This document shows positions 1-63,691 of a DNA stretch of 64,000 nucleotides, in pieces (position 1 is the stretch's first letter; the number at the start of each line of letters is the position of its first letter). This DNA is from a virus. A model generated the notes under the pieces. The model had not been told where the DNA came from. It was given only the letters and a program-made list of their open reading frames with translations, and ran no database searches. The stretch lies in the IMG/VR virus record IMGVR_UViG_2802429139_000001. One strand, given 5' to 3'. Made by a program: the position numbers and the translations under genes.

Positions 1-39
1 TATCTCACGTTGACCAGGCGGTCGCCAAAGTAGACGATC

Positions 40-77
40 AGAACTGAGACCTGTTGCTATACAGCAGGTCTCAGTTC
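40..77. terminator. Perfect inverted repeat AGAACTGAGACCTG...CAGGTCTCAGTTC, hairpin downstream of minus gene 178..375
   Basis: 14-bp stem arms read directly from sequence. Confidence 0.5.
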
Positions 78-177
78 CATTCTTGTCAGCGCGCCCAAAC
101 GCCCAACGCGATGACGACTAGAACGCCGAGAACGGCTGCGCGCCAGAGAGTCGTACACATCGCCGCGTAGGGGTCAG

Positions 178-375
178 TCACGCCCCCGCCACCTCCGCGA
201 GTGTTCCCGTGATGGCGGTCGCCAGCTCGGCGGCGTCGCCGTAGTCCAGCTCGACCGACTGAAAATCGCCGTCCCGGTCCAGGACCTTGACGGTGATCTT
301 CTGCGCCTTGGCCCAATGCTGCACATCCAGCGTGTCGCCATCCGGGTCAGTTGCAGTGAAGACCTGTTCCGACAT
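178..375 (-). CDS. Hypothetical small acidic protein (65 aa)
   Basis: ATG preceded by perfect RBS GAAGGAGG; overlapping ORF 86..316 is Arg/Gly-rich wrong frame. Confidence 0.6.
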   Translation of the reverse strand: MSEQVFTATDPDGDTLDVQHWAKAQKITVKVLDRDGDFQSVELDYGDAAELATAITGTLAEVAGA

Positions 376-581
376 AGTGAGCCTCCTTCATAGCGTGACG
401 GTAGACCACTCTACTACCAAAACTGTACAAGGTCTATGCCCACCGTTTGACGTAGCGTTGCCTTGTACAACAACTTCGGTGTGTTCATATTGGTAGACTT
501 GTCTACCATCACTGCTACACTGATCATCGACACCGCAAGGTGTCAATCACAACGACGACAAGCGGAAACAAGGAGGTGAAC
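376..581. promoter_or_regulatory. Divergent intergenic region with operator-like palindromes (TGGTAGACTTGTCTACCA at 491..508; GGTAGACCACTCTACTACCAA at 400..420; CTGTACAAGG/CCTTGTACAA inverted pair)
   Basis: Palindromes read from sequence between divergently oriented ORFs. Confidence 0.5.
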
Positions 582-767
582 ATGGTTCAACCGCCTGACG
601 GGATGAGCCGAGATGAGGCGTTAGCAGCGCTGCGCCAACGGCGCAGAGTTGTCACCCAGAAGATTGCAAATCGCAAACGCGAGCTTCGTGCTCTCGTGGC
701 TGAAGTGCAATCCCTGGAGACAGAGCTAGCCCACATCGAACAAGGCGAAGATCTGCTGTCTAGCTAG
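582..767 (+). CDS. Hypothetical coiled-coil protein (62 aa)
   Basis: RBS AAGGAGG 6 nt upstream of ATG at 582; heptad-like Arg/Glu/Leu-rich sequence; leader motif CAATCACAACGACGACA upstream. Confidence 0.55.
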   Translation: MVQPPDGMSRDEALAALRQRRRVVTQKIANRKRELRALVAEVQSLETELAHIEQGEDLLSS

Positions 768-775
768 TCAGCAGG

Positions 776-812
776 TCACCAGGGGGTCGGGAGCGACCCT
801 CTCGGCCCCCTG
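776..812 (+). terminator. GC-rich hairpin CCAGGGGG...CCCCCTGG followed by T-rich tract
   Basis: Inverted repeat read from sequence after stop of 582..767. Confidence 0.4.
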
Positions 813-1030
813 GTCTCGTCTCGCTTGTCCTAGAGGTGATTTCGTTGGTCGCGATCACGGCAAGGACGCGAGCTAGCGCGCTAGGTGATCATTGGGCGCG
901 CTCCGTTTCGACTGGCTCACGTCACCAACACAACGCACCCCCGCCCGTTCTTTCTATACCGGGTGGCGGGCGGGGGTGTTCAAACATCATCAACAACAAC
1001 CTCTTTCGCAAGGTGCGGAAGGTGCATGCA

Positions 1031-2470
1031 ATGAAAGCGAGAAAACCAATGAACGATACCGACATCATCACCGGTGATGAGGTTACTTTTCACAACAACC
1101 CGCAGATCGTTCTGCCGGAAGGCATTACATACGGCCGCGCCAAGGAGATCCTGGAGCGCATGCAGGATGAGGCCGAGTCGGTGCAGCAGACCAGTCGCAC
1201 CTACCAGTTTCGCCCGTTTGACGGCGCGGTCGCCACCTCTCGGGTGATGAAGCGCATGTTCGGTATCACCATCGGCGCTCCGAGCGGTGGCGGCTTCTTC
1301 TCCCCGCCCGAGCCTCCGGAAACCCGCACGGTGCAGATTTCGGCGACGGAGACTCTGGAGGTTCCGTGGGGCAACGTCTACCTTCCCAGCGTGGACAACA
1401 AGACCGTCGTCCAGGTCGGCGGAAGGCGCGACCGCGACAACGGAATTGTCACGCACGTCAACGTCATCAGTGCGAAGAAGAACGCCAAGATCGCGCGCGA
1501 GTTCCTGGATGCGATCGGTGAGGAGCTGAAAACCAACTCGATCTATCGTGGCAAGGCGATCGTAGGCACCGAGGAGCCGGAGTTCCTGAACCTCGCGACC
1601 ATCGTACCGAGTGAGATCGTCTTCTCCGATGAAGTGATGAGCACACTGGAAGGCACTCTGTGGTTAGTGATTCGGCACCGTAAGGCGCTCAAGGGCGAGG
1701 GTGTGCGCATCAAGCGTGCGCTGCTGTTGGAGGGTCCGTACGGCACCGGGAAGACCTCGGCCGGTCAGCTCACCGCGCTGGAGGCCGTCCAGAACGGTTG
1801 GACGTTCATCGCTGCACGACCGGGCGATGACATCAACGATGTGCTCCGCACGGCCAAGCTGTACCAGCCCGCGGTGGTCTTCATCGAGGATGTGGACAAC
1901 CAGACATCGACCAGCGACGTGGATCAGGTGTCCAAGCTGCTGGAGACCTTCGATGGTGTGACATCCAAGGGGTCCGAGGTCGCACTTCTGATGACTACCA
2001 ACCACTTTGAGCGCATCCATAAGGGTATGCTCCGCCCAGGTCGCATCGATGCGGTGGTGGAGGTCGCGGCACTGGATCGCAACGGTGTTGAGCGTCTAAT
2101 CAAGGCCGTCGTCGCGTCCGAGCGTCTTGCCGAGGACGTGGACTATGACAAGGTCTATGAGGCGATGACCATCCAGCTTGGTGACGGTGTGGTGGTCGGC
2201 TTCTATCCAGCGTTCGTGCGCGAGGCGCTGGAGCGCGCCAAGACGTTCGCCATCGGTCGGCTCAATGGTGGAACCAACTACAAGCTGGACACCACCGATC
2301 TGGTCGGCGCGGCGGTCTCGCTGCACAACCAGCTCAAGGCCCAGTTTGAGGCCGAAGAGGGTATCGCCAGGCCGACGATCGACGATCAGATCCAGGGTCT
2401 CATGAGCGACTTCGAGATCCGGGATTACGACAACGATTACGTCGGTACCTTGAAGCTCAAGAAGAGCTGA
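1031..2470 (+). CDS. Classical-clade AAA+ ATPase with ~230-aa N-terminal domain of unknown function
   Basis: Walker A GPYGTGKT, Walker B VVFIEDVD, second region of homology MTTNHFERIHKGMLRPGRID; start trimmed to ATG 1031 with GGAAGG RBS. Confidence 0.85.
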   Translation: MKARKPMNDTDIITGDEVTFHNNPQIVLPEGITYGRAKEILERMQDEAESVQQTSRTYQFRPFDGAVATSRVMKRMFGITIGAPSGGGFFSPPEPPETRTVQISATETLEVPWGNVYLPSVDNKTVVQVGGRRDRDNGIVTHVNVISAKKNAKIAREFLDAIGEELKTNSIYRGKAIVGTEEPEFLNLATIVPSEIVFSDEVMSTLEGTLWLVIRHRKALKGEGVRIKRALLLEGPYGTGKTSAGQLTALEAVQNGWTFIAARPGDDINDVLRTAKLYQPAVVFIEDVDNQTSTSDVDQVSKLLETFDGVTSKGSEVALLMTTNHFERIHKGMLRPGRIDAVVEVAALDRNGVERLIKAVVASERLAEDVDYDKVYEAMTIQLGDGVVVGFYPAFVREALERAKTFAIGRLNGGTNYKLDTTDLVGAAVSLHNQLKAQFEAEEGIARPTIDDQIQGLMSDFEIRDYDNDYVGTLKLKKS

Positions 2471-2491
2471 TCCGCACCGCAGATACAAAGA

Positions 2492-2527
2492 AGCACCCCC
2501 GAGAGCGAATCTCGGGGGTGCTTCCGT
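2492..2527. terminator. Hairpin GAAGCACCCCCGAG...CTCGGGGGTGCTTC after AAA ATPase gene
   Basis: 14-bp perfect inverted repeat directly after stop codon. Confidence 0.6.
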
Positions 2528-2840
2528 ATCAACACATTTCGCCACTGTGGCGCATCTAGCGCCTGATCATTCTCCCGAATGACACACCGAGCAGAACACC
2601 GAACCCGACCAGTACGCCCAGGGTTGTCAGCAGGGTTCGCGTGGTCATCTCTTCGGCCTCGATCTCCTCCAGGTCGTCACACTCGGGACACCGGCACTTC
2701 TCCCGGTAGTGCGTGCAGTCGCAGGGGCCATCCAGCTCATGGCCAGCGCACGCGCCGGCGCGGTGGTGCGGGTCGCCAAGGTCGTGGTTTTCCAGGTCGT
2801 GGCCCGCACGCGCAGATGTCGGTGAGACCCAGATACTCGG

Positions 2841-3209
2841 TCATCGCTTGCCTCTCCAGCGGCGCACCGTCATGCGGTCGACGCGTGCTGCGCGCTGTGC
2901 GCCATGCTCGCTCAATCCGTCTTCCATCGACAGCAGCGCCACGACGCGCGCGACGGCCATGCCCATGTCGGCGCGGCTCCGCGCGCGCTCCAGCGCTTGC
3001 CCCGCGTCTTCTAGTGTCAGCTCTTCCGCGAGGTACCGCGCCGCGGCCATCATCGCGGCGTCGCGCATCGGATACTCGGCAGGGTCGGCGTAGCGTTCGA
3101 CCAGATCGTTGAACGTGTCCGCGAAACGCACCGACGCTGCGCGAGACAGCTTGAAACCGTTCTCGCGTAGCCATCCGGTCGCGTTGGTGGGAGCTGTTGC
3201 CATGGTCAT
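2841..3209 (-). CDS. Hypothetical protein (122 aa)
   Basis: GGAGGA RBS before ATG at 3209; GC3-rich frame; ends at TGA 2841..2843, with an open coding-like continuation downstream. Confidence 0.6.
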   Translation of the reverse strand: MTMATAPTNATGWLRENGFKLSRAASVRFADTFNDLVERYADPAEYPMRDAAMMAAARYLAEELTLEDAGQALERARSRADMGMAVARVVALLSMEDGLSEHGAQRAARVDRMTVRRWRGKR

Positions 3210-3266
3210 GAAGTGTCCTCCAGTTGTCACCTTCTAGTCTAGTGACGCGGCCGGTAGTCCAAGCTA

Positions 3267-4064
3267 CTAGCGCGGCAAACCTAGAGGGTCTACCGAATCA
3301 ATCGGACGGTCCATCGCCGCGGTTAGGCCAGCGCGCGCGCCCTGTTTGAATCCGTCGTCACTGAACTGATCCACCATCGTGTTGACCGCATCCGGATACG
3401 CATCTCGCATCGCGTCGCGAGCGCGCTCACGGTCCGACTTGTACAGCGCGACCACGCCAGCCTTGTTGGCCGCATCACCTTCCTGCTGTTTGATGCGCTC
3501 AGCGATCGACGCTGCGAACCCAATGAGCCAGGATTGACGGTAGACGTGCAGCGATTGCGGCGCTCGCTTATCGCGCGTCATCTGCACCAGGTGGTCCAAC
3601 CGCTCTGCCCGATTCATGGCCGCCCACTCATCCACGGTGGCCGTACGGAACGTCTCTCGTTTCGGCATCTCCACTTTGGCGACCAAGCGTGTCGCCTGTG
3701 GTTGCAATATCTCCCAGAGCATCCTCAGGCGTTCGACATGGTGAGACATGCCGAACACGTGCACGAGCGGCATGTTATTGAGACCAACGGTCTTGCAGTG
3801 CAGCGCCTCCGCGAGGATGGACAGCATGTGTTTCTGCTCGGCCTGATAGGGACCGCGCACCAGTAGCAGCGTGTCGATGGCGTTCGGGATGTCGCTGATG
3901 TCGAGACCGCGCTGGTGTGCGCGCACAGTCGCCAGATCGATGCCGTGTTTGGCGAGCAGCGCGAAGGCGCGTTCCTGAAATGCCTCCTCCTCGGGCGTCC
4001 CAGTCACATCCTCGGCCTGTCGCAACAGCTTTGCGATCTTGTCAACGATCCTGTCGTCAGTCAT
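3267..4064 (-). CDS. DUF2786-like protein (265 aa)
   Basis: N-terminal KIAKLLRQAEDVTGTPEEEAFQERAFALLAKHGIDL resembles DUF2786 signature. Confidence 0.65.
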   Translation of the reverse strand: MTDDRIVDKIAKLLRQAEDVTGTPEEEAFQERAFALLAKHGIDLATVRAHQRGLDISDIPNAIDTLLLVRGPYQAEQKHMLSILAEALHCKTVGLNNMPLVHVFGMSHHVERLRMLWEILQPQATRLVAKVEMPKRETFRTATVDEWAAMNRAERLDHLVQMTRDKRAPQSLHVYRQSWLIGFAASIAERIKQQEGDAANKAGVVALYKSDRERARDAMRDAYPDAVNTMVDQFSDDGFKQGARAGLTAAMDRPIDSVDPLGLPR

Positions 4065-4184
4065 GGGTGTCCCCTGATGTCGCGTTGTCTTGGTAGTTCA
4101 TTCTACCAAAATACTAGTAGACCTCTCTACCATTGTGCTACGGTCGATTGGTCTACCAAACAACGGACGAAAGGGCTGCTGCTC
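4065..4184. promoter_or_regulatory. Divergent promoter/operator region with three palindromes (TTGGTAGTTCATTCTACCAA 4090..4108; GTAGACCTCTCTAC 4116..4134; TTGGTCTACCAA 4149..4160)
   Basis: Half-site TTGGTAGAC / GTCTACCAA recurs here and at 400..509. Confidence 0.55.
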
Positions 4185-4388
4185 ATGGCCAAGAGGGTTT
4201 GGATCGATAACGGCGGAATGGTCACCTGCGACGAGCACTCGGGTATGTACATGCGTTTCGCCATCAAGGAGCGGCCCAGCGCGAAGCGGCACACCACACC
4301 TCTTGGTGTGTACGTCGCAGATGAGTCCGGAAAGTACGAGTGCGAAACTTGCGTCCCCTTCCACACGAGGAACCCAAATGCCCAGTAA
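4185..4388 (+). CDS. Small Zn-ribbon-like protein (67 aa; CDEH...CETC)
   Basis: AAAGGG RBS; stop overlaps start of next gene by 11 nt (translational coupling). Confidence 0.55.
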   Translation: MAKRVWIDNGGMVTCDEHSGMYMRFAIKERPSAKRHTTPLGVYVADESGKYECETCVPFHTRNPNAQ

Positions 4389-5400
4389 ATGGTCCAACGT
4401 GCTCCGCGGTGTCGCCTTTGGCGACGCGTGGGGCTACCGCAATGAATTCAGGTCGTACGCTCAGCTCACCCAGCACGGTCTCATGGGTCCTGCGCTGCCT
4501 GAGAAGCTGATCATCAGTGACGACACTCAGATGACGCTCGCGCTCGCGCGCGCTCTGCGCGGTGCGAGCGACAAGACTGACAGTGAGATCCGTGCCGACG
4601 TGCTTACGGAGTGGGTCAACTGGTACGGCGACCCTGACAACAACCGCGCACCTGGCAATACCTGCATGCGCGCGATCGACGCCATCAAGCAAGGTGCGCA
4701 CTGGCTAGACGCTGTGGTAGCCGACTCTGATGGTTGCGGAACCGTGATGCGTGTCAGCCCAGCGGCGCTCGTGAACAGTGAATTCCATAGCTGGCAAGGC
4801 ATTTCGACCTGGCAGGCTCTCACAACGCATGGATCACCGACAGGCGCGGCGGCATCACTGGTGGGTGCTGCCCTGATTCGGCTAGCACCCATGCCTGGCG
4901 ACACCGTGAACTACGCGCTGGACCTCACGCTTGAGGCTGTCGGCGATCCTGATGATCTGCTGCTGCATGGACTCGACGAGTGGATCGTCGAGAATGGCGA
5001 CTACTACGGTCCGGCTTATCAAGAGGGTGCACGTCGATTCATCACGCGCGGAATGCTGAATCTCGCGCACACGTTGGTAGACGCGGACATTGCGCTGAGA
5101 AACATTCGCGCGAAGGATCTAGATCCCTGGGACCTAGATCCGTGCGAGCTGGCAGGTCCGGGATGGCGTGCGCACCATGCGCTTTCAACCGCGCTGCTGT
5201 GCGTCGACCTTTTCCCGGAAGATCCGATCTCCGCGCTACGTCGCGCGACGGTCACCAGTGGAGACAGTGACTCGATCGCTGCGGTCGCTGGGGCCGTCCT
5301 CGGTGCGATCCATCCTGACCCCTGGCCTGACGGTTGGTTCGATCGACTGGAAACGCGCTACCAGAAAGAGATTTCAGAGGCAGAAGGGTTTGGGTTCTGA
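4378..5400 (+). CDS. ADP-ribosylglycohydrolase (DraG/ARH family)
   Basis: GVAFGDAWG, SDDTQM, C-terminal TSGDSDSIAAVAGAVLGA signatures of the ARH family. Confidence 0.85.
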   Translation: MPSKWSNVLRGVAFGDAWGYRNEFRSYAQLTQHGLMGPALPEKLIISDDTQMTLALARALRGASDKTDSEIRADVLTEWVNWYGDPDNNRAPGNTCMRAIDAIKQGAHWLDAVVADSDGCGTVMRVSPAALVNSEFHSWQGISTWQALTTHGSPTGAAASLVGAALIRLAPMPGDTVNYALDLTLEAVGDPDDLLLHGLDEWIVENGDYYGPAYQEGARRFITRGMLNLAHTLVDADIALRNIRAKDLDPWDLDPCELAGPGWRAHHALSTALLCVDLFPEDPISALRRATVTSGDSDSIAAVAGAVLGAIHPDPWPDGWFDRLETRYQKEISEAEGFGF

Positions 5401-5678
5401 TGATCCATGCAGATCACGACAGCGAACCGTACAAACACGGCTACGACGACGGCAAGAAGATGGCGCCGTTCGTGAAAAAGTTCCCAGCATGCGTGTCCAT
5501 CCCTATGCGGTGGTCAGCAGATCCGGGACCGAAGCGGTCTGACGGATGGCCTGAGGCTGCTCACGCGTATGCCGAAGGCGTGCAAGATGGTTGGACCGAC
5601 AACTACACACCAGAACCGGGAGGGCGTCTGATCTCCGACATCACAACCGAATTGGACACCGAGGAGAAGGGCACATGA
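5400..5678 (+). CDS. Hypothetical protein (92 aa), third gene of ARH operon
   Basis: ATGA overlap with ARH stop; GC3-rich. Confidence 0.5.
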   Translation: MIHADHDSEPYKHGYDDGKKMAPFVKKFPACVSIPMRWSADPGPKRSDGWPEAAHAYAEGVQDGWTDNYTPEPGGRLISDITTELDTEEKGT

Positions 5679-5753
5679 GCATTGAGAATGAGCTACTGAG
5701 CAAGACGGCCAAACAGATTCACGACGGCCAGATCACAAGACCGTAGAACACAA

Positions 5754-5803
5754 AAGAAAACGCCCCCAACCGCAACTGAATGCGGTTGGGGGCGTTTCTC
5801 TTT
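5754..5803. terminator. Bidirectional intrinsic terminator (AAAA-CGCCCCCAACCGCA...TGCGGTTGGGGGCG-TTTCTCTTT)
   Basis: 14-bp stem flanked by A-run and T-run between convergent genes. Confidence 0.7.
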
Positions 5804-5869
5804 GGCCCTGGCGGGAGCGCTTGCACCTGGTTCACCGGACAGGCGCGAGTGCTACGACCGCCAGGGGCT

Positions 5870-7042
5870 TTACGCCGGTTCGGTATGGCGAATCGGCTGA
5901 ATCATCTGAATCGTCTCGCCTGCAAGCGGGTTGGCCAGCAAGTCATCGGCCTCGACAACATCGGGCGCGAACATCAACCCGCGCAGACCACCTTGCAGGC
6001 CGATGGTCACCTTCTCGCTGTCGAGTGCGTTGAGGCTGTCCATGAGGTACACGGGGTTCAGCCAGATAGTCTCGGCGTCGCCGGTGAGCTGTACATCCAC
6101 GTCTTCGTTGACGGTGCCGATCGACGTGCTCGCGTAGACGTTCAGGCCACCCTCACCGAATGTGAGCTTCATCCGCGGATGGTTCTCAGCCGACGTGCCG
6201 GTGACGGCCAGCGCGCGCGTGACAGCCTCGATGATCTCGGGGACCACGACCGTTGCCGTCGTCAGGTATTGCTTCGGCAGTGCGCCGCGGCAATTCGGGA
6301 ACTTGTCATCGACCAGGCGCGTGGTCATGCGCCGAGTGCCGCCATGGATGCCGAGAAGCTGTGCGTTGCTTTCGGTTCCGCTGACGGCGAGATACACCTG
6401 ATCGTCACCGAGCCGGCCGATCTCGGCCAGTGCGCGAGTCGGGATCAGTAAGTGTTGCCCAATGGACGGGTCAGCCAGTGGCGTCCAGTCGATCTCGCGC
6501 ATGGCGATCCGGTGACCGTTGGTCGTGGTCAGCGTCAGCGTGGTCTCACTGGTGATCTCCAGTTGCACGCACATCTGACCAGGCTTGGCCTCGTCGGTGC
6601 TGGCCGCGCCGATCACCTGCGTGACGGCGTGACTGAACTCGTCGGCGCTAACGGTGCCGGTGTCATCCGGCAGCGCCGGGAGCACCGGGTACTGGTCGGC
6701 GATCATCGTCGGCAGCGTGAAGTCCACCTTGCCGCACTGGATGGCCACGGTCGAACCGTTGTCGGTCCAGGTGATCGGCTTGCGTGGCAGCACCTTGGCG
6801 ATCGTTGCCAGTAGCCGCCCACTGACCAGCGAGCTACCCGGCGTCATCTGCTCGGCGTCGGGTAGTCCGATCTCGGCGCTCACGTCTAGGTCGAAGCTGC
6901 TCAGCGTCAACCCGAGCGGGCCCGCGGTGACCAGCATTCCCGCGAGAATCGGCGTCTGTGGCTTACCGGGGATGATGCGTGCGGCCCACGTGACCGCCTC
7001 TGTGAACGCGTCGCGGTCCATGGTGAATGAAAGGTCAGGCAT
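5870..7042 (-). CDS. dnaN: DNA polymerase III beta sliding clamp homolog (DnaN-like)
   Basis: TTNGHRIAM, TRLVDDKFPNCRGALP, NPVYLMDSLNAL match conserved DnaN blocks. Confidence 0.8.
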   Translation of the reverse strand: MPDLSFTMDRDAFTEAVTWAARIIPGKPQTPILAGMLVTAGPLGLTLSSFDLDVSAEIGLPDAEQMTPGSSLVSGRLLATIAKVLPRKPITWTDNGSTVAIQCGKVDFTLPTMIADQYPVLPALPDDTGTVSADEFSHAVTQVIGAASTDEAKPGQMCVQLEITSETTLTLTTTNGHRIAMREIDWTPLADPSIGQHLLIPTRALAEIGRLGDDQVYLAVSGTESNAQLLGIHGGTRRMTTRLVDDKFPNCRGALPKQYLTTATVVVPEIIEAVTRALAVTGTSAENHPRMKLTFGEGGLNVYASTSIGTVNEDVDVQLTGDAETIWLNPVYLMDSLNALDSEKVTIGLQGGLRGLMFAPDVVEADDLLANPLAGETIQMIQPIRHTEPA

Positions 7043-7087
7043 CTCTACTCCAAGGCTCTGGTGAGGGGTCTCAGAGCTGAATGTATC

Positions 7088-7101
7088 CCGGTAGTTGACA
7101 G
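7088..7101. promoter_or_regulatory. Copy 1 of CCTGGTAGTTGA(TAC) upstream motif, ahead of DnaN start
   Basis: Shared motif with 40399..40414, 48425..48441, 51067..51082. Confidence 0.4.
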
Positions 7102-7126
7102 TACATGTCCTACAGTTTTGGCAGCG

Positions 7127-7824
7127 CTACACGTCGAGATATTCGTACGACGTGAACAGCGCGCCGACGTTGATCACACCCAGGAACAGATCGACGCCGA
7201 CCGCGACGCCGTGGTTTCTGAACCCCGGCCCGTGATTGATCTCATTGGCACGCACCGGCAGACTCGTCACCTGCGTGCTGTTCCGGTAGGCGCGAATGGT
7301 GTGGTTCGGCTCGTCGTACCACACCGACACCGAATCGCTATTGGCCCATGCAACACTGACCGTCGCGTGCTTGGTCACCGTGGCCGCGTTGCCGCGGCCC
7401 TTGATGATATGCAGCTTGTTGTTGATGATGCCGGTCTCAACCTCGATGCCGTAGTACGTGTTGAACAGCGCATCACCACAGATCACCAGCCGAGTCTTCC
7501 CACCCGCCAGCGAGCCGATGACGGCGTTGGCGCGGCCGTTGTCGCTCATCGCCTGCACCTTGTGGCGCACCAGGCCGCGGCCAGCCAGCTTTCCGCCGTC
7601 GATGTAGGGGTCGCCACCGAAGAACGGCAGGCCGCCGTAGACCATCGTGAACTTGTCCAGGTTCGTGAAGGTGTCGGTAACGTGCATCTTGCCCGTCACG
7701 CGAACGTCAGCGACGACGCCAATGCGAGCGCCCTTGCCGACACCCTCGATGGGCTGAGACAGCACACCGGGCCGCGCGTGAACCATCCGCGTGAACGGCT
7801 TGGGCGGCCGGACTAGGGTCATGC
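7127..7824 (-). CDS. Hypothetical protein, possible beta-helix fibre/minor tail-like (232 aa)
   Basis: Start trimmed to ATG with ATGA overlap at 7819..7824; repetitive beta-strand-rich sequence. Confidence 0.5.
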
Positions 7825-8139
7825 GCGTTCCTGCACATACGGATTGAGCGCCACCACCAGATCGGCAGCAGTCTCGAAGTTCGTGACGAATGGCCGCGAT
7901 GCGACGAACGCGCCAGCATTCCAGAACCCGATGTGTGTCGATGTCCCGACGTACGCCGCGAACGTGACCACCGAGGTTGACTCGCCGTTGTCGGCTGTCG
8001 CCCACGTCGGCGTTTTCCGCACGACGCCTGGCATCTCGTTGGCTCCACCGGCACCAGGCTCGGCGTTGTGCAGTGAGACCTCATCGAAGTAGCCAACCAT
8101 TGTGGCGCAAATGGCATTCAGAACAGCTTCGTCAATCAT
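7819..8139 (-). CDS. Hypothetical protein (106 aa)
   Basis: Operon position, start/stop overlaps. Confidence 0.45.
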   Translation of the reverse strand: MIDEAVLNAICATMVGYFDEVSLHNAEPGAGGANEMPGVVRKTPTWATADNGESTSVVTFAAYVGTSTHIGFWNAGAFVASRPFVTNFETAADLVVALNPYVQERA

Positions 8140-8142
8140 TTG

Positions 8143-8463
8143 CTACCCCTGCCTTGAGACGGTGCCGAGAATCCAGACCAGACGCGGCTTTGGCGCGTCC
8201 GGGTAGACGACATAGACGCGGAATCGCGCCCCGGCTGGGATCGGCTCTAGATCATCGGCCTCGATGAAGAAGCTTGCGCCGGAGGTATCAACGTCGATAG
8301 ATGGCCAGATGCCCAGCGTCTCACTGAAATTGTGCGAATACATGTACAGCGTGACGGTGGTGCCAGCGGGGAGCGTATCACCCGCTGGCACGTCCCATCG
8401 GTGCACGAGGTCCTGGCCCTGAATGAGGTTGATGCGATCAACGATCGCGACATTACCTATCAT
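8143..8463 (-). CDS. Hypothetical protein (106 aa)
   Basis: Operon position. Confidence 0.45.
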   Translation of the reverse strand: MIGNVAIVDRINLIQGQDLVHRWDVPAGDTLPAGTTVTLYMYSHNFSETLGIWPSIDVDTSGASFFIEADDLEPIPAGARFRVYVVYPDAPKPRLVWILGTVSRQG

Positions 8464-8779
8464 TTCGGTGCCTTTTCGCTAGTTCCTGGTCCGATGCAAT
8501 ACGTTCGTCGCGTTCGGCATTGAGGTCTTCGCGAAGATTGCGGAACCCAGTGCGGACCTCAGAGCGGAAGTCGCCGAAGTCCTTTCGTATACCGCGAACG
8601 TCGTCTTTTACCTCGTCAAGGTCGGTGCGCATCGGTGTCTTATGACCGTTTTGGACCTGACCGCGAATGGCTTCCAACTGATTGCGCGTCTGCCGTTGGG
8701 ACAGCACGTAGGCAATGCCGATGATGCCGTAGGCGATCAAGTCCATCAGGTTGTCGGCTCCGATGCCGCTCCAGTTCAC
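8453..8779 (-). CDS. Membrane-anchored coiled-coil protein, lysis-cassette associated (108 aa)
   Basis: N-terminal TM helix (LIAYGIIGIAYVL) then charged coiled coil. Confidence 0.5.
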   Translation of the reverse strand: MNWSGIGADNLMDLIAYGIIGIAYVLSQRQTRNQLEAIRGQVQNGHKTPMRTDLDEVKDDVRGIRKDFGDFRSEVRTGFRNLREDLNAERDERIASDQELAKRHRNDR

Positions 8780-8780
8780 G

Positions 8781-8993
8781 TCAGAACAACCCGTCTCGCC
8801 GCTGCTCGTGCAGCACTCGACCGGCTACGCCGATCACTCCGAGCCCCAGCATTGTTCCGGCCATGTCCAGCAATGGCGGCACCGCTTCCTTGTCGATGAC
8901 ATTGGCAGCCGCAAGCCCCGTGAGAACAACGAAAGTAACGCCGTATAGCGCGATTCGCTGTGCGGATGTCAGCTTCTCACTCAGATTTGGCAT
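8781..8993 (-). CDS. Putative holin (70 aa, two TM segments)
   Basis: Two hydrophobic helices, directly downstream of lysB. Confidence 0.55.
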   Translation of the reverse strand: MPNLSEKLTSAQRIALYGVTFVVLTGLAAANVIDKEAVPPLLDMAGTMLGLGVIGVAGRVLHEQRRDGLF

Positions 8994-9014
8994 GATAGTT
9001 CCTCTCGTAATTCG

Positions 9015-10091
9015 CTATGCCGCAAGTGCTTTGCGGCCATATGCGTTCATCGAGTCGATGGCGTGCCGGACAGAGCTACGCCCTGAGCCGTCCATCACGT
9101 CATCAATCCCGTAGGTGCCGTGATCGCGCGCACCGGATGCCGCGAATCGGATCGCGATACCAGCGGCGCGTGCGGCGTCGATCAGGTTCAGCGGGTTGCC
9201 CAACAGCTCGGTAATCTGCTCAACCAGACCACCCTTCCCGGTCAATGCCGCCACCACGTCTGTGGCCATCTGGAATGGGTCGTGAATCTGGAGACGTGTC
9301 AGCACGTCATAGACGGCTGTAATGTCGTCACCAGCATCACCTTTCGGCACGGCTGTATACATATCGCCAGCGTGCGCGTAATCGTGCCAGGTGGACGGCG
9401 TGCCTTCGATTCGTCTCGGGGAGATGCCGCGGCCCGGTAGCGTGTCACCGGGCCATGCGTGGTTCTCTTCGCGGGACGGATTGCCGAAGGTGTAGCCGCC
9501 GGCCAGATCCGCGAGGCGATGCGACAACGAGCCACCGTGGATGACCTCACGCAACAGTAGCGACGCCGCCTCGGCACCCTGCGAGTAGCCGCCGAGCATG
9601 AACTTCCCTGGCGTGGCGGCGATCCGCTTGATGCCAGCGCGTACGGCGACCTCGACTGATTCCTGGTAAGACAGCGACGTGATACCCGTGACTGGTCCCC
9701 CGGGGATGGGGCCGAAGCTGGCCGGGTAGTCGATCGGTACCCAGGTGAAGAACCCGGGGTCAAGGCCGCGCGCCACGTCGGCCTGGAAACCCCAGTCCGC
9801 AGCAGACCAGGTACCAGCGAACGTGTACACGGTAATGCGCTGCCACGGCAGCGGTTTGAGCCCATAAAGCCGCATCCGAGTCGCGTAGTTGGCGATACCG
9901 ACCGCCGGCAGTCCAACATTCTTCTGGAACTGGATCAGCACACGCTCAGTTAGCTCATCGAAGTAGTCGCCGTGGGTCATGCCCATGTCGCGCGCCCAGC
10001 GGAATTTCTCAGTGAGGTAGTACCGGACTCGTTCAACCTCGGGCCCCTGATCGCCCTCGCCGTAGCCGACGAACTGACCGTTAACGATCAC
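9015..10091 (-). CDS. lysB: Lysin B, mycolylarabinogalactan esterase
   Basis: GYSQG serine-esterase motif; position after lysin A. Confidence 0.85.
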   Translation of the reverse strand: MIVNGQFVGYGEGDQGPEVERVRYYLTEKFRWARDMGMTHGDYFDELTERVLIQFQKNVGLPAVGIANYATRMRLYGLKPLPWQRITVYTFAGTWSAADWGFQADVARGLDPGFFTWVPIDYPASFGPIPGGPVTGITSLSYQESVEVAVRAGIKRIAATPGKFMLGGYSQGAEAASLLLREVIHGGSLSHRLADLAGGYTFGNPSREENHAWPGDTLPGRGISPRRIEGTPSTWHDYAHAGDMYTAVPKGDAGDDITAVYDVLTRLQIHDPFQMATDVVAALTGKGGLVEQITELLGNPLNLIDAARAAGIAIRFAASGARDHGTYGIDDVMDGSGRSSVRHAIDSMNAYGRKALAA

Positions 10092-11548
10092 TTCTCACCC
10101 CTGACCTTGGCCAGGATGCGGCGGGCTAGCTCGGCGTCCCGCTGCCGATCCGGGTACTCGTCGGGGTCGGCCCCGGCAATCTCCTCCAGCAGATCGATCG
10201 CCTTGGCGTCGCCATACTCGGCGCGCTTCTCGATAGCCTCGACGTGACTGTTGGCGTCCATCACCCGGATGTATCCGCGTACGTTGTTCGCCTTCTTCTC
10301 GCCGAGATGGCGCAGCGGGGAGAGCGATTCCACGATCTCCTGTTGCTCGCGCACGAAGTTGAGAATTTCGCGCTGTTCGTCGTCGGATAGTGCCATGAGG
10401 AAACCTCCTGTTTTGGAGCCGATTTGGCGCTGAACGTCGGCACGGAAGATGTCCATGTCGATCTGGCCGGGGTCCCACTTGCCCTCGTCGGTCTGTGGGT
10501 CGCCGTCGTCGTATTCCTTGTGTGAGATGCTTCGGCTGGCATCGACGCCAAGGCGACGGTTGATCGCGGCGTTGATCTTGACCAGCGTCTCGTATTGGGC
10601 ATTGGGCCACGAGCTGCGGTGGCGCAGGGGCAGATCAGATGAACCGCCACCGTCGTTCTGGCATTCGATGCCGATGGTCCGCCGATTGCCCGTTCCGGGT
10701 CTCAGATCGCCGTACGCACCCGTTCCGGCGTGCCAGCACACACCGACAGCGACCAACTCGGCCACGCCGTCACGGCGCAAATGGATGTGTGAGAGCGGCC
10801 CTTTCAGATCCGGCCGCCCATTCCAGATGGATTGCCATGTGGATTCGTTGCTTCCGGTGTGGTGGTTGACGACGCCCCAGAGCGAGCCCATGTCGCCGTG
10901 GCCGCGCGCTAGCCAGCTCACATCGCCTATCGAGCACTCGACGACGGTCACACCCTCGGCGCGCAGTACGTCGGCCAGCCATACCGGGTCGCCCGTCCAC
11001 GGTCCCGAGGGTTGTTCCGGCTCGCCGGGGTTGCCACTGACGGCGCGGTCATAGACCTCGTTGGCCTCGCGCCAGCGCTCGTCGTAGCGGTCCGGGAACG
11101 CTGAGCGCTGCACGTCTTGAGCCATCCGGCCGGGTGAACGGGAGTTAGTGCGGTAGTCGTACGGCAGACGCAATAGCGCCTCTAGGAACATGCGTGAGGA
11201 CTCGCGAATGTCCATGCGGCGGAACGCACCGACCGGGTCACCGAAGAGACCGCCCCAGCCCCAGTTGGCACCCTTGGGTGCCTGCTGCTGAAAGTACCCT
11301 GAGGAGTAGCCGTCGTCTCCCTCGGCGTCGTGCAGCAGCGCCAGGCATTGCGGGTCCTTGACGTTGGCGAAGCACCACCAGCCATACTCACCAGAGTCGG
11401 GGTTGGTCGTGCCGACCTCAACGGCGATCGTGGCGAGCGCGATCTTGACGCCCTTGGGTTCGACGCCGAGCATCGCGGCCACTGAGATCACCTCGCGCGC
11501 AATCTCTTCGCGAGTCAGCATCGGCTTGGAGCGAGTGAATCGCATCAT
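10088..11548 (-). CDS. lysA: Lysin A endolysin (N-terminal hydrolase domain + amidase_2 + C-terminal domain)
   Basis: GYFQQQ N-domain, HHTGSNE...HKEYDDG amidase-2-like motifs. Confidence 0.85.
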   Translation of the reverse strand: MMRFTRSKPMLTREEIAREVISVAAMLGVEPKGVKIALATIAVEVGTTNPDSGEYGWWCFANVKDPQCLALLHDAEGDDGYSSGYFQQQAPKGANWGWGGLFGDPVGAFRRMDIRESSRMFLEALLRLPYDYRTNSRSPGRMAQDVQRSAFPDRYDERWREANEVYDRAVSGNPGEPEQPSGPWTGDPVWLADVLRAEGVTVVECSIGDVSWLARGHGDMGSLWGVVNHHTGSNESTWQSIWNGRPDLKGPLSHIHLRRDGVAELVAVGVCWHAGTGAYGDLRPGTGNRRTIGIECQNDGGGSSDLPLRHRSSWPNAQYETLVKINAAINRRLGVDASRSISHKEYDDGDPQTDEGKWDPGQIDMDIFRADVQRQIGSKTGGFLMALSDDEQREILNFVREQQEIVESLSPLRHLGEKKANNVRGYIRVMDANSHVEAIEKRAEYGDAKAIDLLEEIAGADPDEYPDRQRDAELARRILAKVRGEK

Positions 11549-11552
11549 CTGG

Positions 11553-11693
11553 TCACCATCCGTACTTCCCTTTCACAAGGCGCGGGTCCTTCTTCTCGCC
11601 GGGCGAGTAGAACCGAGTGATCACGACGAAAGTGATTGCCGCCGTTATCCCCGCGATACTCACTAGCCCAAGGCCGAACAGCGCGGCCTTCAT
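11553..11693 (-). CDS. Small membrane peptide (46 aa) immediately upstream of lysA
   Basis: ORF below track cutoff; starts right after stop of upstream gene; single TM helix. Confidence 0.35.
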   Translation of the reverse strand: MKAALFGLGLVSIAGITAAITFVVITRFYSPGEKKDPRLVKGKYGW

Positions 11694-11972
11694 TTACGGC
11701 CGCTTAAATCGCAGAAAGTCGGGCAGGAACGACGGCAGCAGGTTGGCCAGCCGTTGCGCCAGGCCATCGAGCACCACGTCATCGATCTTCCACGGGGTCA
11801 CGTTGGTCATGTTGTCGATGATTTTCGGAAGCGCCGCAGCAATTTTCGCTGTGAGAATGTCCGCGAACCTGTCTGCGAGCTTGTCAAGCAGTTCGGGCCG
11901 CTCCTCGAAATATTCCTGGGCAGCTTCTAGCGCCACAGTGACGATCGACTTGCCGAGCGACCGCGGGTTCAT
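11694..11972 (-). CDS. Hypothetical protein
   Basis: ATGA overlap with upstream gene. Confidence 0.45.
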   Translation of the reverse strand: MNPRSLGKSIVTVALEAAQEYFEERPELLDKLADRFADILTAKIAAALPKIIDNMTNVTPWKIDDVVLDGLAQRLANLLPSFLPDFLRFKRP

Positions 11973-12376
11973 AGCTTGAAAATCTTGTTCGCGCCGTTGT
12001 CCCAAACGATGTTGATGTCACCACCGTTGGGCGAAACGGGAAGGCCTGTCGCCGTGTCGATGTATGCAATCAGCGGGGACGTGGCCGCACTGCCCGTGTC
12101 CTTGATGAGAACGACCGCCTCAACGCTCGCACCCGATACCGCCGGGTGCGTAACGTCGGCCGCATCGCAGACACCAGCGGTCGCGGTCTTGGAGCCCAAC
12201 GCTGCTGAGGTGGCGATGCGTGCACCGGCTGCAATATCCGAAAGAAACTGATGTGTCGCAAGATTGACCGTGTACGCGCCGGTGTCCACCAGGACAGCCT
12301 TGATCGTGTCACCGGTCCAGTTGATGCCACCGGTCGCGAACGCTTCACGGCCCTTGTCGTACAGTGCATTTGCCAT
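11969..12376 (-). CDS. Minor tail/hypothetical protein (135 aa)
   Basis: AAGGTGG RBS before ATG at 12376. Confidence 0.5.
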   Translation of the reverse strand: MANALYDKGREAFATGGINWTGDTIKAVLVDTGAYTVNLATHQFLSDIAAGARIATSAALGSKTATAGVCDAADVTHPAVSGASVEAVVLIKDTGSAATSPLIAYIDTATGLPVSPNGGDINIVWDNGANKIFKL

Positions 12377-12453
12377 TGTGATTTCCACCTTCTTTTGCGC
12401 AGGGCTAACGCCCGGATCAGAGGTGAGCCGGGTGCGTGGAGGGAACTCGCGAG

Positions 12454-14199
12454 CTAGCTGAGTACGACGGCCATGGCACCCCAATTGATAGAGGTGTTTG
12501 CGAGCTTGAAAGTTGTTGTGTCAGAGGCAACATTCATAATTAGGTAAATCTGAGATGCCCCCTGGGAAAGGAACAATGCGCCACCGCCCTCGGTCCCTGT
12601 GGGAGCCGTGGAGGTGCCAAAAACCTGGAGGATCATCTGACCCGCAGTGCAGGTCACAGCCTGTGTCGGTTGCGATGAAGTACCCGAGGTCTTAGTTACG
12701 GTTCCTGACGGGGATGTGACACCGGACAGCGCGACTCCTGCCATGCGCCACCAACCGCTGCCAGTGGCCGTCACCGAAATGGTCTTGGTGCCCGCCGATC
12801 CCATGGCTGATGCGCTCCGGTAGATCTTGATGAACCCGGTGCCCACGCCTGATGTGAAGGTCTGGGTATCCAGGAGAGTCATGGCAGCGCCGGCACAAGT
12901 GACCGAAGACGGGTTGCCTGCGCGGTCTTGCACGACGGCGCAGTACACGTAATCACCTACTGCGGCATAGACATCGAAGGTGGAGGTGCCGCCGTTACTT
13001 TCTGACGTAGTGCCGTAGCTGCATCCGAGAGTCACCCCAGACTGTGTGGCGGGCTGAAGCGGGACAGCCAGCGCGGCCCAGTTTCGCGACGCGCTCAGTG
13101 AGCCCGTAAATGATGTGTCGGCGTCTGTATCTCTGACCGATTGAGTCAGGAATCCAGCGTTATCGAGATAGCGACTTGCGCCGCCCGTGAGACTCGACAG
13201 GGTGGTGCTGTTCTCGCCGGGCGTGAACGCGTGCACCGTTCTGCCGTTCAGGGGCACCGTGACTGATTGTGAGAAGGTGGTACCGATGCCTGTCGTCTGT
13301 TTGGCCGGGCCGTATCCCTGGACACCCGTGTAGGACGCGGCCACTACCTGGCCCCAACTGAATCCGGCCTTGTTGATGTTGACGGTTGCACTGCCAACGG
13401 CGACATTGCGAATCAGATACGCGCCCATGACAACACCACCGTTGAGTGCCTGGCCAAGGCAGATCATCGGCAAGTTGCTCGCACCGTACGTGGCGCTGAG
13501 GGGGCCGATGCTGCCCACCGAGTAGAAGGCCAGCACATCCGCCCCAGCGGCGGGACTGATGGTGCATGAGGTTGGCGAGCCGGTCGTTTCTGATCCGACG
13601 CCCACCGTGTCGAAAACGACCAAAGCCGTCTGTGTTATCGCGGGTGCACCGAACGCCTCCGCTGATGCAATTCCCGTAGTGGCGATGGTCATCGCGCCAC
13701 GGGTGAGTGTCGTCGCGCCGAACGCCTCGGCGCTGACGATGCTGGTCGGGGCGACGTTGCGGCTTATTTGCGGGCTGGGTACCGCCTCGGCTGATGGAAT
13801 GCCAGCGGTGACGATGACGACGTGGGAGAGCTTCGCCGTGCCGAAAGCCTCTGCCGATGGAATACCCGTGGGGGTCACCGTTACGGGTCCCACGGTGAAC
13901 ACGGGTGTGCCGAAAGCCTCTGCCGACGGAATCGCAACGGGGTTGAATGTGTTGCGCAGCAGTGCTGTACCGAAAGCCTCCCCTGACGGGATGCCGGTGG
14001 GGTACGTGAACTGCGGGAACGTGACCAGCGGTGAGCCGATCGCCTCGCCCGATGGAATGCTGGCGGGGCGCAGGTTGTAGACCAGTTTCACCAGTTCGGG
14101 TGTTCCGAACGCCTCCGCCGAAGCGATCGACGGAACCGATAGACCGAATCGTCCGTACCATTGGCCCCCTGAACTCTTGACCGGGAAGCCCTGGGGCAT
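12454..14199 (-). CDS. Minor tail protein with seven tandem ~22-aa repeats (IPSAEAFGTP...)
   Basis: Repeat units visible in translation; tail module position. Confidence 0.7.
   Translation of the reverse strand: MPQGFPVKSSGGQWYGRFGLSVPSIASAEAFGTPELVKLVYNLRPASIPSGEAIGSPLVTFPQFTYPTGIPSGEAFGTALLRNTFNPVAIPSAEAFGTPVFTVGPVTVTPTGIPSAEAFGTAKLSHVVIVTAGIPSAEAVPSPQISRNVAPTSIVSAEAFGATTLTRGAMTIATTGIASAEAFGAPAITQTALVVFDTVGVGSETTGSPTSCTISPAAGADVLAFYSVGSIGPLSATYGASNLPMICLGQALNGGVVMGAYLIRNVAVGSATVNINKAGFSWGQVVAASYTGVQGYGPAKQTTGIGTTFSQSVTVPLNGRTVHAFTPGENSTTLSSLTGGASRYLDNAGFLTQSVRDTDADTSFTGSLSASRNWAALAVPLQPATQSGVTLGCSYGTTSESNGGTSTFDVYAAVGDYVYCAVVQDRAGNPSSVTCAGAAMTLLDTQTFTSGVGTGFIKIYRSASAMGSAGTKTISVTATGSGWWRMAGVALSGVTSPSGTVTKTSGTSSQPTQAVTCTAGQMILQVFGTSTAPTGTEGGGALFLSQGASQIYLIMNVASDTTTFKLANTSINWGAMAVVLS
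13600..14080 (-). repeat. Tandem in-frame ~66-72 bp coding repeats inside the minor tail gene
   Basis: Recurring CCGAA(A/C)GCCTC(C/G)GC(T/C)GA(T/C)GG(A/C)AT units on plus strand. Confidence 0.5.
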
Positions 14200-16334: not shown

Positions 16335-16762
16335 AGCTCGCCCGTCTCCCGCTTCTTGAGCAGGCGCTCAAGTAGTTCGGCCTGCTGTAGGCGCGACAGC
16401 TTGTTGATCGCCACGTCGGCTGGATGCTCCTCCTCGACAGGCGTTTCCAGCGGCACCCACTGCCCCGGTGAGGTCATCCAGTGCGGTCCGTTGGCCTTGG
16501 GTGGAATCCACTTCTTGACCGGTTCGCGCACCAGGCCCGAGCCGCATTCGTATAGGTGCTCAGAGACCGCCATGTTGTAGCCGATAGGCATCACGAGCTG
16601 AGCGCCGACGACACCAGGCAGCGCGACGAGCATCCATAGGAACATCTCGCGCGGGTTCTCAAGGTCGCAATTCTCGCGTGTGGGAAAGCCTTTGGAGAAC
16701 TCGTAGTCTTGAGCGTTGGCACCGTTCATCCCAAAGTTGGGATTCATCGCGGGCATCGTCAC
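16331..16762 (-). CDS. Hypothetical tail-associated protein
   Basis: Operon position. Confidence 0.5.
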   Translation of the reverse strand: MTMPAMNPNFGMNGANAQDYEFSKGFPTRENCDLENPREMFLWMLVALPGVVGAQLVMPIGYNMAVSEHLYECGSGLVREPVKKWIPPKANGPHWMTSPGQWVPLETPVEEEHPADVAINKLSRLQQAELLERLLKKRETGEL

Positions 16763-18490: not shown

Positions 18491-19440
18491 TCAAGGCCCC
18501 ATGGCCGCGACCAGTGCCGCGGCTGTACCAGTTGAGCCATTGCACCTCCAGCGGGGGCGTTCTTGTAGCTGATCGGTATCTGTTGCTTCGGCGTGTACGG
18601 CGGGATGACGTGCATGAAGTGGCGGCCATTCATCAGCGGCAACATGTTGGTGTAGTGCGCATCGCGAATCATCAAGTCCTGCTTGTTCAGACTGATGACC
18701 GCGCCACCCTGTACGGCGGTGATCGGCGGGATCGACAGGACCCGAGAGCGGTAGGCGCCACCGGGTTTGCGCGCGTACTTCTTGCCGCGCCAACTGAAGT
18801 CCGGGATCTCCCACTCAGCACGCGTCAGAATCCACTTGTGCCGCATGGGCTGATCGGTCGGGTTCTCGATCTCGATGTACCCCGTCGCGTCGGTGCCGCC
18901 ATCTGAGAACTCGGTGATAACCGGGTTCTCGTACCACATGGGTTGGCCTGCACGCAGTTTCAGAATCAGATTGAGGTACTGTTGCTTGATCGGATCAAGC
19001 TCCGACTCGATGACCGGATTCTCATACATCAACACGTCGAGCATGCGCACGCCCGACTTCTCAGTCTCGACGCCGAGCGTGATCGGCTCGGGGTCGTCGT
19101 CCCACTCATCTTCTTCGTAGGCGAAGATCTTGCGGAAGTCTGATTCGTTCTCTTCCATGGTGCGACCGAGGGTTTCGATGCAATGGAATCCAAGGGTGAG
19201 GTCGCGATGCAGGACCTTCTTGCCCTTCTGCGTCGCGCCATCCTGGAACGCGCCCGCCTTCCAGGTGGTCTTGACCGGGGCGTCATAGATGCCCTGTACC
19301 TGACCCTTGGCATTCCAGACGCCCTCATGGCCTTCGACCTCGCCGTGCGTGTGGAACCGACGGCCGTCCCCGCTAATCCACATCGAAAGGATCTGTGACT
19401 CATATCGATCGGGCTGGATGATGAACGGATTGCTACTCAT
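18487..19440 (-). CDS. Minor tail protein (distal tail-like, 317 aa)
   Basis: Immediately follows tape measure. Confidence 0.7.
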   Translation of the reverse strand: MSSNPFIIQPDRYESQILSMWISGDGRRFHTHGEVEGHEGVWNAKGQVQGIYDAPVKTTWKAGAFQDGATQKGKKVLHRDLTLGFHCIETLGRTMEENESDFRKIFAYEEDEWDDDPEPITLGVETEKSGVRMLDVLMYENPVIESELDPIKQQYLNLILKLRAGQPMWYENPVITEFSDGGTDATGYIEIENPTDQPMRHKWILTRAEWEIPDFSWRGKKYARKPGGAYRSRVLSIPPITAVQGGAVISLNKQDLMIRDAHYTNMLPLMNGRHFMHVIPPYTPKQQIPISYKNAPAGGAMAQLVQPRHWSRPWGLE

Positions 19441-40398: not shown

Positions 40399-40414
40399 GC
40401 CTGGTAGTTGATGG
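40399..40414. promoter_or_regulatory. Copy 2 of CCTGGTAGTTGA motif upstream of glycosyltransferase operon
   Basis: Shared motif. Confidence 0.4.
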
Positions 40415-48424: not shown

Positions 48425-48441
48425 GCCTGGTAGTTGATACC
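48425..48441. promoter_or_regulatory. Copy 3 of CCTGGTAGTTGATAC motif, followed by CTACC (GGTAG-N11-CTACC)
   Basis: Shared motif. Confidence 0.4.
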
Positions 48442-51039: not shown

Positions 51040-51066
51040 TGGTTGATCCTTTCATTCCTGGTAGTT

Positions 51067-51082
51067 GATACGCGCGGCGCAC
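51067..51082. promoter_or_regulatory. Copy 4 of CCTGGTAGTTGATAC motif
   Basis: Shared motif. Confidence 0.4.
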
Positions 51083-62488: not shown

Positions 62489-62538
62489 GCTGACTCTTAA
62501 TCAGCGGGTCTGGGGTTCGAAACCCTGACGGCGCACCA
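62489..62538 (+). tRNA. Partial tRNA-Lys(CTT): anticodon stem-loop to CCA only (attR core), not a complete gene
   Basis: GCTGA-CTCTTAA-TCAGC anticodon arm, T-arm TGGGGTTCGAAACCCTG, acceptor ACGGCGCACCA; no matching 5' acceptor or D-arm. Confidence 0.6.
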
Positions 62539-63659: not shown

Positions 63660-63691
63660 CGCGACGGGAATCCCGTCGGCGGCGAGCTCAC

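Follow-up and report, generated by a model that had tools for sequence, protein, structure and literature searches.

The viral DNA analyzed here, 64,000 nucleotides (nt) held as IMG/VR record IMGVR_UViG_2802429139_000001 and referred to throughout as the window, encodes a genuine three-domain beta sliding clamp of the DnaN family on its minus strand at positions 5870–7042 (stop codon included). The 390-residue protein, gp81 of the prophage prophiFSIL01-1, is a member of a monophyletic clade of phage clamps, the DS6A/MabR clade, whose genes occupy a position after the lysis genes. The role that we favor, with a probability of roughly 0.55, is that of a DNA platform in lytic growth, which would be loaded by the host and would have an altered partner specificity. 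The gene and its annotation were already known; the phage-only clade, the post-lysis synteny, the unusual peptide-binding pocket and the conserved upstream box are new.

Identification of the clamp

The open reading frame (ORF) runs from an ATG at 7042–7040 to a stop codon at 5872–5870. A Shine-Dalgarno-like GGAG (7048–7051, minus strand) lies 5 nt 5′ of the ATG and is conserved in the alignment of upstream regions described below (alignment A1). An earlier, sequence-only reading of this DNA had given the gene a span of 5870–7101; the boundary at 5870 is correct, while the one at 7101 takes in about 60 nt of 5′ flank, the ORF beginning at 7042. The peptide blocks by which that reading had recognized a beta clamp are all found in the ORF: TTNGHRIAM at residues 173–181, RLVDDKFPNCRGALP at 242–256 and NPVYLMDSLNAL at 329–340.

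Profile searches bear out the assignment to DnaN. The Pfam families PF00712 (E 2e-29), PF02767 (E 5e-17) and PF02768 (E 7e-14) all match above their gathering scores, and these three clamp domains (N-terminal, central and C-terminal) span residues 5–356 of a single chain. The NCBIfam model TIGR00663 (dnaN) scores 209.6 bits, compared to a cut-off of 137.65, and PHROG 947, annotated as a DNA polymerase processivity factor, matches with an E-value of 7e-66. In a sequence search of the PDB, mycobacterial beta clamps are the best solved structures (E ∼1e-72). Since the Pfam, TIGR00663, PHROG 947 and PDB matches are far beyond chance, the resemblance to a clamp is not an artefact of inspection by eye.

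The three-domain beta-clamp fold, whose absence would have spoken against the sequence-only reading, is present in the structure prediction. An AlphaFold2 model of the monomer, built with 26 homologues, has a mean predicted local distance difference test (pLDDT) value of 87.6 and a predicted template modeling (pTM) score of 0.83. The top matches of this model in a Foldseek search against the PDB are the clamps of M. thermoresistibile, M. smegmatis, M. marinum and M. tuberculosis, with template modeling (TM) scores of 0.86–0.91 and E-values of ∼1e-41. Pairwise ratios of nonsynonymous to synonymous substitution (dN/dS) among five MabR clamp orthologues vary between 0.08 and 0.20 at dS values of 0.2–1.2. 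Judged by these ratios, the gene is under strong purifying selection and the protein clearly functional.

Positions 1–20000 of the window correspond, reversed and with 100% identity, to positions 62535–42536 of GenBank record BK061311.1, such that the record position equals 62536 minus the window position. This record is Mycobacterium phage prophiFSIL01-1, a prophage of Mycobacteroides abscessus strain 1009, in which the clamp is gp81, with 100% identity in both DNA and protein and with an identical annotation. The exact protein is also present in NCBI as 'DNA polymerase III subunit beta [Mycobacteroides abscessus]'. Orthologues with 73–90% identity and with the same position and annotation occur in McProf (M. 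chelonae), prophiFSAT01-1, prophiFVLQ01-1 and prophiFSQJ01-1. The 2022 paper that defined cluster MabR described a sliding clamp common to all MabR genomes, located between the lysis cassette and attR (PMC9434293). The identification of gp81 as a clamp is, thus, correct but not new, as it is already contained in the BK061311.1 annotation and in PMC9434293; the MabR papers contain no analysis of the clamp protein, its pocket, its lineage or its regulation. The clamp is also prophage-encoded, as had been proposed, sitting inside the prophage between the lysis and lysogeny genes. The last ∼1.5 kb of the window (62536–64000) continues past the left end of the prophage as deposited and is presumably host chromosome beside attL.

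A phage clamp lineage with a post-lysis gene position

To place gp81 among other clamps, we relied on an exhaustive HMMER search covering 1.84 billion representative proteins. The closest relatives outside MabR are P0042 (45% identity, 299 bits) and P0043 (44%, 287 bits), followed by P0044–P0050; these relatives are uncharacterized proteins, and the metagenomic contigs encoding them are phage-like. Host-type mycobacterial clamps score ∼248 bits against gp81 (phmmer, PDB) and share 34–38% identity with it in Foldseek alignments. In a neighbor-joining tree, four MabR clamps, DS6A gp34 and P0042–P0050 form one clade with a bootstrap value of 98/100. The M. tuberculosis-type host clamp and further chromosomal clamps of actinobacteria lie outside this clade; the M. 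tuberculosis sequence in the tree was entered by hand and matches the PDB alignments across the part that aligns. Gp81 does not qualify as an orthologue of host dnaN, given its location in a prophage without a dnaA-dnaN-recF context, the identity of 34–38% and the separate clade. Identity and tree also rule out a recent capture of host dnaN.

DS6A gp34, a DNA polymerase processivity factor with 34% identity to gp81, and P0042–P0050 resemble gp81 in clade and post-lysis position and share sequence motifs with it, such as W-x-N-P. They differ from it in overall sequence (34–45% identity) and in the pocket, where Met is kept at M362 and R365/L366 are often lost (E. coli numbering).

The clamp gene lies just downstream of lysis/holin genes in all seven clade members with a readable upstream flank (the window, DS6A, P0042, P0043, P0046, P0047 and P0049). 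In P0042 the order is holin, one ORF, DUF7427 and clamp; in P0043 it is holin, a DUF2746-like gene and clamp; and P0049 has an amidase, a peptidoglycan-binding protein, a holin, DUF7427 and one ORF before the clamp. The P0046 contig has DUF7427 and one small ORF before the clamp, with no holin or lysin named. P0047 carries a lysin through to DUF7427, then the clamp, an RNase_H_2-type exonuclease and, further on, an integrase. DS6A gp34 directly follows the lysis cassette and is itself followed by a small gene and an exonuclease. The post-lysis position is therefore a property of the clade and not an oddity of prophiFSIL01-1. Beyond the clamp the clade members diverge: an exonuclease-type gene follows it in DS6A and P0047 and an unannotated gene of ∼400 residues in P0044, P0046 and P0049, whereas the MabR prophages have neither.

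Along the phage forward strand, the window has minor tail genes, then lysin A, lysin B, holin, gp77 (DUF2746), gp78, gp79, gp80, an 84-nt gap and the clamp, beyond which lies a set of convergent and divergent genes. The sequence-only reading had put the clamp behind the lysis cassette, and the clamp gene does indeed share a strand with lysin A, lysin B, holin and four small genes and comes after them. Gp80 (7130–7822, minus strand) matches minor-tail-protein PHROGs, and gp79 (8146–8463, minus strand) has an LtfC-like beta-sandwich domain. Both look structural, and the late structural block would therefore run past the lysis cassette up to the clamp. It is by position that the clamp is a putative member of the late operon.

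Upstream element and terminator

The region between gp80 and the clamp (7043–7126, minus strand; 84 nt) is a candidate promoter/operator that is conserved in all five MabR prophages. In alignment A1 of this region the mean column identity is 85%, with FSQJ01-1, the most divergent prophage, included. The sequence-only reading had assigned the clamp its own upstream motif, and such an element is found at 7087–7098: a 12-mer box, TCAACTACCGGG on the gene strand (minus) and CCCGGTAGTTGA on the plus strand. CCCGGTAGTTGA is one mismatch from CCTGGTAGTTGA; equivalently, on the gene strand TCAACTACCGGG is one mismatch from TCAACTACCAGG. The candidate cis element is the TCAACTACCRGG box. A −10-like TAnnnT hexamer, TACATT (7080–7085, minus strand), starts 2 nt after the 12-mer box and 7 nt after its TCAACT core. 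All five MabR prophages have a TAnnnT sequence here (TACATT, TACTGT and TAGATT), and box and hexamer together are kept in the five with no more than two substitutions.

The exact consensus TCAACTACCAGG occurs three more times in the window, always on the minus strand. One copy (40400–40411) is in the gap between gp43 and a glycosyltransferase gene, just past a hairpin and within a doubtful 38-residue ORF, gp44. The other two, also in the early region, are between gp25 and gp26 (48426–48437) and between gp19 and gp20 (51057–51068). All four copies, the clamp box included, are intergenic and point in the direction of transcription. Allowing two mismatches, the 12-mer has 14 matches compared to 2.9 expected, and none of 100 shuffles reaches 14. 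McProf holds orthologues of all four sites, each of the three exact ones being conserved there. The three early-region copies are missing from prophiFSQJ01-1, and a 12-mer regulon shared by every MabR phage is, thus, only partly supported. Weaker copies are seen in the repressor/cro and gp85/gp86 intergenic regions. The latter, between two divergent genes (∼4065–4185), also contains several GGTAGA/CTACC repeats, including the inverted repeat TTGGTAGAATGAACTACCAA, and looks like an operator cluster.

A related box, GTCAAy-N7/8-TAnnnT, which several DS6A/P0042–P0050 relatives have in common with MabR, precedes the clamp gene in each of four distant phage contigs, which encode clamps with 37–45% identity to gp81 (L009 ∼1715–1740, L010 ∼940–965, L013 ∼7210–7235 and L015 ∼7925–7950). 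This recurrence suggests that the regulatory element travels with the clamp gene. A simple scan found no canonical sigma-70 −35/−10 pair upstream of the clamp. By inspection, the conserved box fits neither a −35/−10 pair at 17-nt spacing nor the consensus sequence of a SigF or extracytoplasmic function (ECF) sigma factor site. The element is a candidate promoter and operator, with TACATT as the putative site of promoter activity, and the clamp gene may be its own transcription unit, because box and hexamer are kept in the five MabR prophages.

On the 3′ side of the clamp the predicted bidirectional terminator is confirmed as a hairpin at 5757–5798, with an 18-bp G+C-rich stem, a 6-nt loop and U-rich runs on both strands. 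Placed 71 nt past the stop codon of the clamp, the hairpin stands between this gene and the convergent gp83. The calculated free energies are −45.0 kcal/mol (clamp strand) and −38.3 kcal/mol (opposite strand); the z-score is ∼−8.6 and no shuffled sequence folds as well. The hairpin is common to FSAT01-1 and FSQJ01-1. A search of the clamp gene and its surroundings for structured RNA with Rfam gave sub-threshold hairpin matches on the terminator only. The annotated gene gp82 (5719–5826, minus strand), a 35-residue 'membrane protein', overlaps the hairpin and is probably a spurious gene call. Transcription of the clamp would probably start from its own conserved upstream element, or reach it by read-through from the late genes, and would stop at this strong bidirectional terminator.

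The peptide-binding pocket

Residues of subsites I and II of the pocket were taken from a review (PMC11139829) and mapped by alignment to E. coli DnaN (NC_000913.3), whose numbering is used. Gp81 keeps the equivalents of T172, G174, H175, R176, P242, N320, Y323, P363 and R365, and the basic channel residues and several interface positions are conserved, as would be compatible with a ring. The pocket is changed by the replacements L155→Q, R246→G, V247→A and M362→Q, and L366→H adjoins the listed pocket. Among 165 other homologues, Gln is found at position 155 in none, making L155Q MabR-specific within this sample. Gln at position 362 occurs in six other, divergent clamps, and M362Q was accordingly rejected as a unique signature. 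The R246 change carries little weight, since position 246 is variable among the homologues. According to the same review, only G174 and V344 are not conserved in the bacterial clamp pocket. The MabR pocket is atypical, as the positions at which it deviates are mostly described as conserved across bacteria (PMC11139829).

The host clamps of mycobacteria (PDB 3P16, 5AH2 and 8DJQ, among others) are similar to gp81 in fold (TM 0.86–0.91) and in most structural core residues. They differ from it in sequence (34–38% identity), in an R-F/Y-R motif where gp81 has G-H-R as in E. coli, in their dnaA-dnaN-recF context, and at L155 and M362, where gp81 has polar residues. The divergent pocket suggests an altered partner specificity, judging from the residues that line it.

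A more radical consequence of such a pocket can be envisaged, which we consider unlikely. Rings of the DS6A/MabR clamps on phage DNA would no longer serve the host motif through their pocket, polar at L155 and M362, and would recruit a phage partner or evade clamp toxins or griselimycin-like antibiotics. Late events, namely late transcription, recombination-dependent replication or packaging, would thereby be coupled to phage DNA. A coupling of this kind would explain the conserved placement beside the lysis and late genes.

Clamps with a function in transcription are known from other phages. The T4 clamp, gp45, is a trimer like PCNA, built from two-domain subunits, and has a loader of its own; it ties replication to late transcription. 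In phage Mu such a link is made by MuC and the host clamp (PMC12867686); Mu uses the clamp of its host, whereas the gp81 phage encodes its own, with no partner or loader evident. By analogy, gp81 might link replicating or nicked phage DNA to late transcription or packaging, via a phage factor bound at the re-specified pocket. The precedent of beta clamps that activate late transcription (PMC12867686), the adjacency of the clamp to late genes across the clade and the non-canonical pocket all agree with this idea, but no Mor/MuC-like or gp33/gp55-like partner was identified and none of the 93 annotated phage proteins has a canonical clamp-binding motif. With gene position and analogy as its basis, we regard such a transcriptional role as quite improbable.

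Putative replication partners and the proposed role

The replication genes of the phage encode a DnaB-like helicase, a small primase-polymerase, a DnaQ-like exonuclease, a Cas4-family exonuclease, another exonuclease and RusA. Neither a DNA polymerase nor a clamp loader is encoded in the prophage gene set. Without a DNA polymerase of its own, the phage is expected to depend on host DNA polymerase III (Pol III), which uses a beta clamp. The AAA-ATPase gp90 (845–2470, plus strand) was considered as a clamp loader and rejected: it is of the classical Cdc48/FtsH type, and its match to a clamp-loader PHROG is marginal (E 5e-4, P-loop region only). Gp90 also gives an nSTAND-like signal, and has relatives with 52% identity in Gordonia phages and with ∼30% in Erwinia, Salmonella, Pseudomonas and Klebsiella phages. 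According to the literature, its counterpart in McProf is expressed in lysogeny.

Under the DNA platform role that we favor, gp81 would form a head-to-tail dimeric ring, by analogy with characterized members of the DnaN family, and would encircle DNA as a platform in lytic growth. As the phage has no clamp loader, that of the host would load it. It could then tether host DnaE1 and/or phage enzymes (the DnaQ-like exonuclease, the primase-polymerase and the nucleases) to phage DNA, for phage replication or recombination-dependent repair. Overexpression of gp48 of phage Waterfoul, a related mycobacteriophage clamp, perturbs host growth (PMC9339283), which fits an interaction between the clamp and the host replisome.

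The same observation could be read as a sign of host takeover, in which the phage clamp would poison host replication, by titrating the host loader or polymerase or by forming mixed dimers with host DnaN, and so divert resources to the phage. The effect of Waterfoul gp48 is an inhibition of M. smegmatis growth, and several dimer-interface positions of gp81 resemble those of actinobacterial clamps. The Waterfoul authors, however, ascribe the toxicity to replisome stoichiometry and not to a dedicated function (PMC9339283), and a phage without its own polymerase needs an active host replisome. A takeover function therefore seems to us rather far-fetched. The suggestions of the sequence-only reading, that the clamp could redirect host Pol III or act as a decoy, belong with these rival roles, and the atypical pocket speaks neither for nor against them.

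Several observations weigh against the favored role as a lytic DNA platform. The clamp gene is distant from the replication module. The canonical clamp-binding motif Q[LIVMF]x[LM](x)F was not found in any of the 93 annotated phage proteins, compared to 1.1 occurrences expected from shuffling. The pocket deviates in all five MabR clamps, by L155→Q/T (T in FSQJ01-1), M362→Q, R246→G/A/S and L366→H/F, and V247→A is seen in four of them, FSQJ01-1 keeping V. Based on these residues, binding of the canonical LF-type motifs of DnaE1 and the loader delta subunit to gp81 is uncertain. Finally, the MabR authors group the clamp with genes 'most likely expressed during lysogeny' (PMC9434293).

Expression and a possible role in lysogens

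RNA sequencing of a McProf lysogen detected expression of 16 prophage genes (PMC8191103). The genes named as lysogenically expressed in the text of the two papers are gp1-3, gp48-50, gp56, gp84, gp85-86, gp91-92 and the toxin cassette (PMC8191103, PMC9434293). The clamp, McProf gp83, is not among the genes named there, with one of the 16 left unnamed in this text.

The most highly expressed prophage gene in lysogeny is reported to be McProf gp84, a 51-codon ORF (L003 7191–7346). This ORF occupies an insertion between the terminator and the stop codon of the clamp; it runs on the opposite strand, convergent with the clamp. Its transcript would therefore run antisense into the clamp gene. A homologue of gp84 beside the clamp is absent from the window, the insertion being specific to McProf and FVLQ01.

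A clamp expressed in the lysogen could be protective: as a spare or a decoy, it would be unaffected by clamp-targeting toxins, inhibitors from superinfecting phages or griselimycin-type antibiotics. Such a function would have a parallel in GriR, which Kling et al. in 2015 reportedly described as an extra DnaN copy of the griselimycin-type producer, with reduced affinity for the antibiotic and a role in self-resistance. Gp81 is altered in the pocket to which griselimycins and clamp-binding peptides bind, and the upstream element, with no more than two substitutions across the five MabR prophages, could permit independent expression. The gene also lies in the lysis-to-attR region that the MabR authors hold to be likely expressed in lysogeny (PMC9434293), and the one McProf gene left unnamed among the 16 leaves room for the clamp. 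Other observations speak against it. McProf gp83 is absent from the lysogenic genes named in the text of PMC8191103 and PMC9434293, and the clamp has the orientation of the late genes and comes immediately after tail-like genes. The 12-mer box is shared with early lytic intergenic sites and not with lysogeny genes, and DS6A and other clade members keep the post-lysis position, with an annotated exonuclease gene after the DS6A clamp. Furthermore, PADLOC-DB gave no defence match for the clamp or its immediate neighbors, the weak IetA/TRIP13-like P-loop matches being confined to the distant gp90; gp81 was thus ruled out as a component of a known defence system. On balance, a protective role in lysogens appears doubtful.

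ADP-ribosylation genes of the prophage

The prophage encodes a minor-capsid protein fused to an ADP-ribosyltransferase domain (record gp53, window ∼29448–32990, minus strand) and a separate ADP-ribosyl glycohydrolase (4378–5397, plus strand). The two could be a writer/eraser or toxin/antidote pair. Expression in lysogeny has been reported for gp86, the glycohydrolase orthologue in McProf, and an ADP-ribosyl glycohydrolase is also found near the clamp in the P0047 prophage (L013).

Relationship to other phage clamps and significance

Other DnaN-type clamps encoded by actinobacteriophages include Corndog gp84 (Cluster O), Waterfoul gp48 (Cluster K5) and those of Arthrobacter phages. Cluster O and Waterfoul are also similar to the gp81 phage in that no DNA polymerase is among their published annotated functions (PMC4351075, PMC9339283). 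Their clamp genes differ from gp81 in location. The Cluster O clamp shares a leftwards-transcribed region with the gene for a Ku protein (PMC4351075), and Waterfoul gp48 is among the replication genes gp46-49 (PMC9339283), in contrast to the post-lysis site of gp81. Judged from scores, the Cluster O, Waterfoul and Arthrobacter clamps fall outside the DS6A/MabR clade.

As a discovery, gp81 itself has little weight, since a GenBank annotation exists and beta clamps are known in several actinobacteriophage groups. The puzzle is that phages without a polymerase or a loader keep, under strong selection, a clamp with an unusual pocket beside their lysis genes. In M. abscessus, the host and a drug-resistant pathogen, the clamp is targeted by drugs (griselimycins), and MabR prophages have been linked to raised intrinsic resistance. 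A second, pocket-altered clamp would be clinically relevant if it is expressed in lysogens.

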